From: Candidatus Marinacidobacterales bacterium
GTDB taxonomy: Bacteria > Acidobacteriota > Vicinamibacteria > Marinacidobacterales > SMYC01
Direction of reading: 5' to 3'
Assembly: GCA_965237955.1 (NCBI GenBank)
Contig: OZ250169.1
Span: 5,088,001-5,152,000, forward strand
Length of the DNA: 64,000 nt
The notes under the pieces are model-generated. The model was not told where the DNA came from. It did not search any database and saw nothing but the letters and a program-made list of their open reading frames with translations. Made by a program: the position numbers and the translations under genes. Positions 50,300-53,108 of this stretch are shown in pieces. Positions within the stretch are counted from its first letter, which is position 1, and the number at the start of each line of letters is the position of its first letter.

Positions 50300-51249
50300 A
50301 GTGCGGAAGAGGCTGTTCACGCTTCATGTGTCGGCAACCGGTCGATGGCCGCCGAACCACGCTATCGGGCCTCTTCGGCCTCCCATACCGCGTCCGCACT
50401 GTCCGGCAGAGGGCTCTCTCCCAGGAAACCGTCGTTCCCCGGCCGCCGAGAGGTCGGCGACCAACTGTCCGCCACCCTCGTCGAAGTTCCAATAGCCGAC
50501 CAGACCGGGGGAGTTCGCATCTGCTCCGGAGCTCATAACGGCTCCGATCTGGGCGTCCGGCAGAACGAGGGCCCAGATAGCGGGTTCGTCTATGAGCCCT
50601 GGAAAAAACCAGGTGGGGGGTTCGCGGCCGCCGGGCGGCGGTCCGATCGTGCCGAAGGTGCACCCGATCGACAACACCTGAAAGTTATTCGACGAGGGCA
50701 CGCCTGTTCCATCGCAGCTTGCCCTCCGGTCTCCGTCGACGTAGATACTCAGGGTTCCCGACGCCTCACGCGTGACAGCGACGTGGTGCCAGACATCGTC
50801 TGCCACGAAGAGGTCGCCCCCGCTGCACGAGCCGAGCGGCGTGCAGCTATTCGACGGATAGCAGTAGTTGTTCTCTCTGGAGTCCTCCAGCATGACTTCG
50901 AGGGTCCCATCCGGCAGTACGTAGAGCTGCCAGCTCAGATTGAAGGAGTTGTCATCCTCGCCTCGCGCGATGATAGCCGCCCGCCTACTCGGCGGCGGGA
51001 GCTTGATCCAGGCGCCGAGGGTGAAGACCTCGGTGGGAAACGTGGGGCTGTACGGAACCGTGACCCGGTCGTCGTCGCCGTCGAACCTGAGCACGCTCGG
51101 CCGCCCGGGTCCTTCCGAAACGGTCTCGACAACTGCCGGCGTGGTCTCCACGACCTCCGGTCCGGTTGGCACGGCTTCTTCACCGTCGCCTCCGCACCCT
51201 CCGTACCCTACGTAAAAGACGAGCGCGATTATCAGAAGCTGACCGGAAA

Positions 51250-52634
51250 CTACTTTGCAGCAGCCTCGGGAGTGAGTGTAAAGCCGAGCTTTTCGGCTGC
51301 CTTTCGCAAGCCGTTGATGTGGTTTCGGCGAAAGCGCTCCTCGAAGGCAGATGCACCGATGTCTGTGTATTCGTGACCATATTTGAGCATGCGGAAGACG
51401 AGCTGAGCGAGCTTTCTTGCGGTGGCAAAGATCGCGGTTTTAGCGTCTTTACGTCGGGCGATGCGGCGATAGTAAGCACCAAGTGCGGTCTTCGAACGGT
51501 TGAGTGACAATGCAGCCATGCGTAAGGCACCGGCGATACGGTTGGAGCCGGTGCCATTGGGGCGTTTGTAGAGTAGCTTTCCACCCGAGATGGGGCGGCG
51601 CGGCGCAAGACGGAGCCACGAGACAAAGTGATTTTCACTGGGGAAGGCAGAGAGGTCGAACCCGACCTCGGTGAGTAGGATCGCGGCGGTATCGGGGCTG
51701 ATGCCGTCGATGCGGGTGAGATCGCATCCAGCAAAACGCCACAGTTCGGTTCGCTGTTCCTGCTCGCCGCGGCGCCGCATGGCGCTTTGCTTGTTCGGGT
51801 TCGGATGAGCGGGCACACTGTCGTGTCTGCGCTCGGTCGGCTGAAGCTCGATGACCACTTCACGGATAGACGCTGGTCGTAGAGTTCGATTTCGGCTTGT
51901 AGCACATCGTAAAGGCGCAGCGCCGATGCGAGATTGAAAAGATGCTCGTCACGCCAAGTGCCGGTGAGATGCTCTGCGATTTCGTCTACGCTTTTCTTGC
52001 ATCGATGATCTCGAAACTCGGCGAGCTTCATCGGGTCACGTTCGCCAGAAACGATGGCACGAACGATGAGCATTCCGGTCTTACCGGTAATGTCGGTCAC
52101 CGCACGGTGGACTTGCACGTTCATCTGGTCCAGAGCCTTCTGCATCCATTGGACGGCTTGGCCCCGATGCTCGATTAGTTCTTGACGCTGCCGGTGCATC
52201 GAGCGTAATCGGCAAATCGACTCCCCCGGGCGAAACGAGCCACGCAGAAGTCCGCAGCTGTGTAACGTCTGCAGCCATTGACAATCTTGCATATCGGTTT
52301 TGCGACCCGGAACGTTCTTCAGCTGCCGAGCGTTGACAAGAACGACCTCGATACCACGGGATTCGAGCAACTCATAAACCGGAATCCAATAGACGTGGGT
52401 GCTTTCCATCGCCACCGACTCCACACCTTGCTCGATAAGCCAATCCGCAAGCTCAACCAGCGCCGGCGTTGTCGTGGAAAACACCCGCACGTTCGGCCGA
52501 CCATCAGCTAGCTGCGGACCGCAGACCCAATGCTCTCGACTCCCGAGATCGATGCCCGCTACCATCGGTCGTATCGACGGCAGGGAATTCCGTGAGAGAC
52601 GCTTCGCCGCTTTGCTCTTCCTTCGTTTGTTCAT
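51250..52634 (-). pseudogene. IS110 recombinase (DEDD RuvC-like plus Tnp20 domain) with one frameshift
   Basis: 'AGID', 'AMES', 'KTD..D', 'IDGI' and serine loop 'ISGGK'. A 1-nt loss at ~51869 splits it. Confidence 0.92.
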
Positions 52635-52884
52635 TCGCTCACCTCAAGTGTATTTTGTGAGCGAAGGCTCCGGCCCGAGATGGCGATCGAATGGATTCTG
52701 ACCGTGGGGAGTGCTTTCGTTGGAAGCCTCGCCAATGATAGGGAGCCGGCTCGGACCCAAGCTGACCCTGGGGCATCATGCACCAATGACAGTACGGGGC
52801 TCGCTGCCGGAGCCTTCACCGACAACCTTTCTACCAGCTTTGGTAGTTTCCTACTTGATAGGCCCGGCCTCCGGCCGGGGGCGT
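52635..52884 (-). ncRNA. Putative bridge RNA of the IS110 element
   Basis: 12-bp closing stem (52663-52674 / 52806-52817), extra hairpins, a target-matching 9-mer at 52759-52767 and a donor-matching 7-mer at 52698-52704. Confidence 0.65.
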
Positions 52885-53108
52885 AGCTGACCAGAGACTA
52901 GGGGAATACGCCTTTGCATGGGATGCGCGCCTCTTCTTTCAGTCGTCGTTTGGCCGAAACCAGCGCGGAAGCTTCAGCCCGAGTTCATTAGACATCGTAA
53001 ACAGCTCGGACTCCCGAAGTCGTCAAGTGTACGCAAAAGTTTTGTCAAGAATGTAAAAGGATGAGTGACGCTGGAGCGGCGCACCAAGAGGGCGTCGTCT
53101 CCACGTCG

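Follow-up and report, generated by a model that had tools for sequence, protein, structure and literature searches.

An IS110 element with an AG core and a putative fold-back donor strand in a Marinacidobacterales genome

How an insertion sequence of the IS110 family presents its own ends to the RNA that guides its recombinase is the question raised by a 64,000-nt stretch of DNA (the window) from Candidatus Marinacidobacterales bacterium (GCA_965237955.1, contig OZ250169.1, positions 5,088,001 to 5,152,000). The minus strand of the window carries an IS110 element bounded by GGTCAGCT octamers at 52892-52885 and 51244-51237, with a predicted bridge RNA upstream of the transposase gene. One of the four guides of this RNA, the left donor guide, lacks a match where the characterized IS621 system would place it, beside the recombination core. 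From comparison with related elements, we consider it probable that this bridge-recombinase element of the IS110 family, whose core is AG, uses as its donor one DNA strand folded back on itself. We also find it reasonably likely that a large clade of IS110 elements with ~460-aa recombinases, to which the experimentally tractable ISPpu9 belongs, employs a self-folding single-stranded donor in place of a double-stranded one. The excised strand would then act as its own "bottom strand", require neither second-strand synthesis nor a junction promoter, undergo one strand exchange, and do so down to the size of a 65-nt dumbbell.

Boundaries and core of the element

The locus had been read, in an initial annotation made from the sequence, as an IS110 insertion into a gene for a LamG lipoprotein-like protein with a reconstructable target, and this reading holds, as do both junctions. 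Excision of 1,648 bp restores a single in-frame open reading frame (ORF) of 315 aa with a LamG domain and the N-terminus MQRRIP. Empty sites, which the annotation had proposed to look for, are present among the contigs of four public sequencing runs that we compared. An X9 contig (1,142 nt) and an X3 contig join position 51236 to 52885, so that the empty and filled alleles differ by exactly 1,648 bp with no target duplication; the short side of the joint spans at least 255 letters in X9 and 22 letters in X3, and 8 letters fit either side. The transposase matches PF01548 (E 2.6e-21), PF02371 (E 7e-15) and NF033542 (257.5 bits against a cut-off of 140). It combines an N-terminal DEDD RuvC-like domain with a C-terminal Tnp domain that carries the catalytic serine, and, as in other IS110 elements, both ends share a dinucleotide core.

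The window's genome holds six full copies and one interrupted copy of the element, providing seven left and seven right ends. All seven left junctions read N-GGTCAG followed by CTACG. At one of the seven right ends the next copy follows without a gap; after the remaining six come CT (the window copy), GA, AT, AT, GT and AC. Among these copies the overlap GGTCAG does not vary; across the family, AG alone is invariant at the two ends. This coding-strand AG reads CT on the non-coding strand. The initial annotation had instead proposed an IS621-like CT core on the coding strand, with 8 nt of donor-target homology and an ambiguous crossover. This model fits the window copy taken alone, but five of the six right ends joined to host DNA lack CT, only AG is constant across the family, and ISPpu9 recombines at an AG core (PMC12288879); we regard the model as a whole as extremely improbable, and the differing right junctions of the other copies rule out its coding-strand CT core. 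Because those five right ends lack it, no duplicated core accounts for the CT that follows the right end: this CT belongs to the left end, of which it forms the first two bases on the coding strand, and recurs by chance in the window target. The 8-nt identity between donor and target is real for the window copy, yet it is specific to this site and coincidental, since only one of six right junctions continues with CT. As the core is AG, the crossover is not ambiguous, and what the annotation gave as "target" and "donor" motifs are the right-hand halves, taken from the wrong strand.

The right end (51239..51253, minus strand) comprises an 8-nt inverted repeat overlapping the stop codon, a 5-nt right donor and the AG core at 51240-51239. 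The inverted repeats of the window element are 8 bp long and lie 36 and 5 nt from the cores, and the RNA lies upstream of the gene, whereas the IS1111 group is defined by subterminal repeats of 11-13 bp located 7 and 3 nt from the ends and a downstream non-coding region (PMC11187229).

Guides of the predicted bridge RNA and a putative internal donor site

For comparative analysis, 37 genome and 80 metagenome loci were collected, and 113 of these plus one intact copy from the window's genome were given to a pattern parser. Of these, 66 of 114 were parsed, yielding 53 distinct guide sets, 49 with a right end and 45 with a left end and flank. The predicted bridge RNA (52655..52825, minus strand) has a long closing stem and two internal loops, with a z-score of -2.85 for the single fold. 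A consensus fold of 26 relatives has the same two loops, with two-sided changes in 24 of 33 pairs, and a search of Rfam returned no relevant match. Together with the covariation of guides with ends and flanks described below, the consensus fold points to a non-coding end with two guide-bearing internal loops, as expected of IS110. The alignment folds better in the coding direction (-31.65, against -25.35 for the antisense), and an antisense RNA as the guide was set aside on this ground; the same-strand argument developed below holds in either direction. In a word comparison, two RNA runs contained only 0.11-0.13 of the words.

The two right guides are strongly matched. The right donor guide (7 nt, 52698..52704, minus strand; the 3' guide of loop 2) and the terminal 7 nt of the right end agree exactly in 46 of 49 guide sets, compared to 6 of 2,268 non-cognate combinations. 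The right target guide, the 3' guide of loop 1, occupies 7 nt and is listed together with two handshake bases at 52760..52768 (minus strand); a third GGTCAGCT copy within the left end, at 52767-52760, which the initial annotation had overlooked, consists of this guide and the handshake bases. The guide marks the left junction in 37 of 45 cases (non-cognate, 21 of 1,964), and the target half that it would pair with lies at 52887..52893 (minus strand) and ends in the left AG core at 52888-52887. Handshake bases, as defined for IS621 (PMC11208158), are identical to the first left-end bases in 39 of 45 elements at position 1 (0.47 in chimeric combinations) and in 28 of 45 at position 2 (0.24). The left target guide, which is the 5' guide of loop 1 (52787..52795, minus strand), shows weak pairing to the right flank: 1.87 of 5 positions, mainly the first three, a value reached in 0 of 5,000 permutations. 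As this pairing has the canonical geometry, it sets the top strand; all four results, read in IS621 terms, make the non-coding strand the top strand and the target an ordinary duplex. With the strands so assigned, the right guides include the core and the handshake bases match the incoming donor, as in IS621. The possibility that the two GGTCAG segments are left guides on the coding strand was ruled out, as both lie on the 3' side of their loops and it is the left target guide that has its partner in the right flank. The donor-loop handshake base shows no family-wide match to the right flank: it is A in 45 of 47 guides, and the flank starts with A in 7 of 47.

The left donor guide (52736..52742, minus strand) departs from IS621, where it pairs with the opposite strand beside the core. 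At this canonical position it matches 1.80 of 6 letters, compared to 1.94 for non-cognate pairs, and none of 45 elements reaches 5 of 6. The guide is instead identical to an internal site, CCTATCA at 52856..52862 (minus strand), which lies on the coding strand 24 nt inside the left end of the window element; the right-end motif follows it in inverted form after 4-5 nt. Across the family, the guide matches the internal same-strand site at 4.6 of 6 positions against 2.18 for non-cognate pairs (0 of 5,000 permutations), and among elements at 53% identity or more, 20 of 22 match at 5 or more of 6 positions. In a mirroring test whose register was fixed from letters outside the tested ones, 29 of 32 departures of the guide from consensus are mirrored in the internal site, and for 1 the site retains the consensus letter (12 kinds of change in 14 distinct guides); over a wider set, 52 of 83 are mirrored. 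Later-fetched material from 26 sources yielded 7 new guide sets, 4 of which match the internal site at 5-6 of 6 positions, one of them with an A/T-rich inner stem. Eight loci of genome G045 were not parsed by the pattern, and four of them, read by eye, show the internal match (7/8). Thus, both donor guides are complementary to one strand, the non-coding one. In IS621 the coding strand, which encodes RNA and recombinase, carries the CT core and is the top strand, and the left donor guide addresses the opposite strand beside the core; in the window element the coding strand carries AG, the non-coding strand is the top strand, and the left donor guide addresses the same strand 24 nt away. As a separate observation, the right end of one relative (L141:3136-3150, genome G009) fits the element's target guide and not its donor guide.

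A proposed folded strand at the circle junction

The sequence around the internal site suggests how both donor guides could be engaged at one junction. The first 7 nt of the left end (52880..52886, minus strand) form the unpaired arm of a predicted bubble, with the CT corresponding to the RNA handshake bases; they are followed by an inner DNA stem-loop of 7 bp with a 3-nt loop (52863..52879, no strand assigned), by the internal site, and by the left-end inverted repeat (52843..52850, minus strand), which is complementary to the right-end repeat at 8 of 8 positions. If one strand folds at the circle junction, the outer and inner stems would frame a bubble in a pseudo-duplex, and each guide would find its partner in this bubble as arranged in IS621; only with such folding do the guide matches agree with the IS621 geometry. 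In our proposed mechanism, joining of the AG cores by the recombinase would copy the non-coding strand out into a circle. At the circle junction, the two 8-nt repeats would pair as the right arm and the GC stem would serve as the left arm, leaving between them a bubble of about 14 by 12 nt. The right donor guide would bind one side of the bubble and the left donor guide the other, in the manner of IS621's top and bottom strands. The target would be an ordinary duplex, read by the strong 7-nt right guide, the weak left guide and, in the window element, a repeat-like arm motif. A single strand would be exchanged with the help of the handshake bases, and replication would complete the insertion.

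The predicted fold is maintained across relatives, with the two stems placed at constant distances to either side. In 45 elements, the register-fixed pairing run of the inner stem averages 5.07 bp, compared to 2.64 bp in chimeric arms, and reaches at least 4 bp in 37 of 45. The stem lies between the core arm and the internal site; its sequence varies while its pairing and position are kept. The outer repeats pair at 6.52 of 8 positions versus 4.92, the core-to-repeat distance is 32-42 nt, and the repeat cores covary (GTTTC/GAAAC, GTTCC/GGAAC, GTTCA/TGAAC and GTCAC/GTGAC). In minimum-energy folds, at least 5 repeat positions are paired in 39 of 42 computed junctions. The strands of the left bubble are non-complementary, with 2 or fewer of 6 positions matching in 24 of 27. 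The second "core" within the bubble is CA in 17, CG in 7 and CT in 0 of 27, so that a second exchange would be disfavoured.

A natural minimal version of the module was found in the genome of the L015 relative (G231), where 27 near-identical copies of a 65-bp element consist of the arm, inner stem, internal site, both repeats, right donor and AG. Its repeats lie 5 nt apart, it has precise AG ends at guide-matching targets, 24 left flanks end in TGGTCAG, and its circle is predicted to fold as a dumbbell. These copies show that the module suffices for movement; movement as a single-stranded circle is inferred from the size. A second genome that was searched contained none of these elements. In G231 (L170-L196) the mini-elements and their parent lie mostly inside 7-nt tandem repeats whose unit fits the target guide, and two copies outside these repeats carry a repeat-like arm motif instead. 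The inverted repeat is perfect in 25 of the 27 mini-elements; the full element has one mismatch.

Three other explanations account for the internal site in different ways. In a double-stranded half-match, the junction would be engaged by the right donor guide and handshake bases only, and the internal site would be a separate inverted half-site in duplex DNA, bound by another donor-loop complex in an accessory or synaptic role; the repeats would be read by protein and the inner stem would be incidental. Half-match and donor-loop-only reactions are reported for IS621 (10.64898/2026.08.31.748434). In addition, the internal site and the right end share one layout, a core, 4 or 5 nt and the same motif, which protein recognition alone would explain, and targets carry the motif too. 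This explanation nevertheless leaves unexplained why a sequence-variable stem keeps its pairing exactly between core arm and internal site, why the repeat cores covary, and how a 65-bp element would form a duplex circle; IS621, moreover, tolerates left-donor mismatches poorly (PMC11208160). We therefore consider it unlikely, though worth weighing. Alternatively, the same base pairing could arise if a supercoiled double-stranded circle extruded a cruciform. The folding energies of the two strands are similar (-15.1 and -14.2 kcal/mol), and double-stranded donors were more efficient at one CazIS110-1 junction (10.1101/2025.10.25.684509). The inner-stem and outer-repeat pairing is common to the cruciform and to the folded single strand. 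On general grounds, though, a cruciform with an 8-bp outer stem over a large bubble would be unfavourable, and supercoils cannot be stored in a circle of 65 bp, which leaves the cruciform with a small chance of being correct.

Finally, the internal site might be regulatory, with the recombinase-RNA complex or an Asr9-like antisense RNA binding just upstream of the element's own promoter, the stem-loop acting as a transcription insulator, and recombination relying on the right-hand guides only. ISPpu9 has its own promoter, a 244-nt leader and abundant antisense RNA (PMC8450116), and in some relatives TATAAT-like hexamers are visible by eye shortly after the repeat. The 65-bp element, on the other hand, has no promoter or gene and keeps the site, stem and repeats in 27 of 27 copies, a count that speaks for sufficiency and not for selection as the copies are near-identical. 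A regulatory site is, in our estimate, very improbable.

Several results weigh against the folded single-stranded donor that we favour. The stability of the inner hairpin relative to shuffled sequences is modest (mean z -1.09, with 13 of 45 below -1.5; flank control -0.24, 4 of 44), and better alternative folds exist in several elements. Non-standard pairs in the outer repeats favour wobble on the coding strand (19 versus 3) and not on the one that folds in the model, nearly all at the two outermost positions; as a guide to strand preference, wobble pairs were judged uninformative to mildly contrary. The internal-site match reaches 5 of 6 in only 7 of 23 elements below 53% identity, and 3 of the 7 later guide sets match more weakly, including family B of the window's genome at 3 of 6. 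The parser left 48 of 114 loci unparsed, the relatives are not independent, and the guide and stem registers of the first tests were picked after seeing the data. No backward joint diagnostic of a circle junction was present in the contigs of the four runs, contigs being a form of data that drops rare forms. The 65-bp element could move by circle-free direct transfer, a route reported for CazIS110-1. In ISPpu9, mutation of the inner palindrome of the left box left circles normal by end-point PCR (PMC12288879), a result that also favours the half-match; the inner stem is thus not required for excision, integration being outside that experiment.

Targets, host gene and related elements

Target and donor guides of the window element, GGGTCAG and CGGTCAG, differ only at an outer base where mismatches are tolerated, and in 2 of 7 cases a copy directly abuts the right end of another family member. 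The self-targeting raised in the initial annotation is therefore plausible, and the element likely targets its own right end. A host-derived block at 52894..52900 (minus strand) is identical to the right-end inverted repeat at 6 of 7 positions and is likely a motif in the target arm that the protein reads. Each of the 5 non-tandem targets resembles the repeat at 5-6 of 7 positions, compared to 39 of 3,700 GGTCAG sites in the background, 13 of which are element junctions; a target consensus defined post hoc has 14 matches genome-wide, 13 of them junctions. Repeat-like left flanks occur in 10 of 41 cases. Identity of target and donor guides is not a rule of the clade, as the two agree at the four variable inner positions in only 2 of 53 sets. 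Because the two right guides of the window element are nearly identical, its right end would itself be a usable target after each insertion, which would lead to head-to-tail copies. Tandem IS110 arrays have been reported with the remark that insertion regenerates no target (10.64898/2026.08.14.744561); unlike that remark, insertion of the window element likely does regenerate one. In G045 (L144, L156, L159 and L166), eight copies have targets that by eye are nearly identical to their own right end, like the window element, and three copies are followed by left-end modules of different relatives, forming mixed tandem arrays.

The transposase gene (51250..52634, minus strand) encodes 460 aa when intact, with D29, E77, D114, D117 and S349, and in the window is frameshifted by a 2-nt insertion near 51868, a feature that had gone unnoticed in the first reading. 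The same insertion is present in four of the six full copies, including that of the window, and in the interrupted copy; the two remaining full copies are intact. The broken copies outnumber the two intact ones, which suggests that copies spread in trans. An assembly error is unlikely, as a 976-nt X1 contig matches gap-free and X5 has the intact form; X1 may be the source sample. The transposases of one family copy (G000:C1:5051614-5053055) and of a 76% relative (4905570-4910148) are interrupted at almost the same codon positions by other insertion sequences.

The 5' part of the interrupted LamG gene, with an upstream purine run resembling a ribosome-binding site, is at 52887..52938 (minus strand; purine run 52938-52930, ATG at 52919), and its 3' part, with PF13385, is at 50324..51238 (minus strand). 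As the initial annotation had anticipated in asking for relatives with an MQRRIP-like start, the orthologues in G015 and G018 begin with MQRAIP; they have a lipobox-like LLGC motif with its cysteine, whose context in the window protein is less typical. Relative to the X3 and X9 alleles, the gene carries a downstream 1-nt frameshift and has 5 nt fewer (50355-50437), so its decay goes beyond the insertion. The X9 allele lacks 9 nt near the signal-peptide cysteine. The upstream gene (53109-53777) encodes a protein with a lamin-tail-like domain, below cut-off, and a PEP-CTERM-like tail.

Other IS110 elements were noted in the course of the comparison. For a second, distant family (~25% identity; G000:C1, e.g. 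4336967, 5209080, 6680248, 4856703 and 5373881), the insertion point is the Trp codon of xNWFxEL..L.P, a recurring C-terminal motif; the left end of the element provides a similar C-terminus with a stop, which would keep the host gene intact. The left guides of this family seem to be identical to the coding strand, the canonical orientation, and four tandem copies lie at G000:C1:5882400-5889020, one joined in the middle of the left end of another. Family B (51% identity, about a dozen copies; G000:C1, e.g. 541345, 2887221 and 3883360) is often found between the same two short flanks, which look as if they were termini of a different repeat or mobile element. A 48%-identity member of the clade is common on Citrobacter and Enterobacter plasmids (records H23-H30 and H36-H50).

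Taken together, these comparisons place the window element in the IS110 family, with ends like those of ISPpu9 and with donor recognition unlike that of IS621; the junction first singled out is an ordinary one. ISPpu9 shares the AG core, a left box of ~43 bp that contains an inner palindrome, a right box of 16 bp, a long 5' leader and non-autonomous derivatives with the same boxes (PMC12288879, PMC8450116); the likeness of the window element is by its ends. By our own reading of Table S2 (PMC12288879), the last six bases of the left box of ISPpu9 are the reverse complement of six right-box bases and lie 35 nt from the core, as in the window element. The two differ in their targets, ISPpu9 inserting into REP sequences and the window element into sequences like its own right end. 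IS621 and ISCro4 share the DEDD and serine active site, the two-loop left-end RNA, right guides ending in the core and handshake bases beside the right target guide (PMC11208160, PMC11208158, PMC13626964), but have 326-341 aa compared to 460 aa in the window family (PDB matches at E 5e-10 and 6e-7).

Parts of the proposed mechanism have precedents in other systems. In IS621, the excised product is mainly a single-stranded circle (10.64898/2026.08.31.748434). In CazIS110-1, it is the top strand that is excised and integrated, and a single-stranded donor of the top strand can integrate (10.1101/2025.10.25.684509). The mechanism proposed here needs both copy-out of a single strand and integration of the top strand only, as described for CazIS110-1 and in the half-match model; there, though, the left donor guide has no partner until the circle is double-stranded, whereas the window element appears to encode the partner in cis. 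A DNA stem-loop adds to guide pairing in ISPpu10 too (10.64898/2026.03.19.712850), but there it lies in the target, outside the guide-bound stretch, while that of the window element lies in the donor and would reposition the guide-binding site. No folded IS110 donor was found in the literature searched, with figures, bioRxiv supplements (notably Fig. S12 of 10.64898/2026.10.21.760802, where covariation is given across diverse clusters in donor windows of 25 nt) and papers behind subscription outside the scope of the search. The donor architecture thus appears to be a new variant with strong comparative support.

Folding of a single strand into a recombination partner also has a parallel outside the family. 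Integron attC sites are folded single-stranded partners that undergo one strand exchange, resolved by replication, and the integrase IntI is a tyrosine recombinase that uses no RNA. The likeness is mechanistic only: the window element has no tyrosine recombinase and is not a member of that group.

Whether IS110 circles act in single- or double-stranded form, and how a single-stranded circle is used, have been stated as unresolved (10.64898/2026.08.31.748434, 10.1101/2025.10.25.684509). The fold-back clade offers a sequence-encoded answer to this question, with exact base-pairing and guide-rescue predictions. If correct, it would explain the palindrome of ISPpu9 and the lack of a promoter at its circle junction (PMC12288879), and the guides of a very common group would have to be read and reprogrammed differently; a metagenome scan gives an estimate of ~27,000 stored stretches that match two protein patterns, not all of which need share the fold-back architecture. 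Near-identical target and donor guides, as in the window element, would provide a simple cause for tandem IS110 arrays. The clade would also be an RNA-programmable analogue of the way in which integrons integrate cassettes, and would open a way to insert cargo as single-stranded DNA. Both a minimal donor of 65 nt and single-strand cargo would be of use in a tool for gene insertion.

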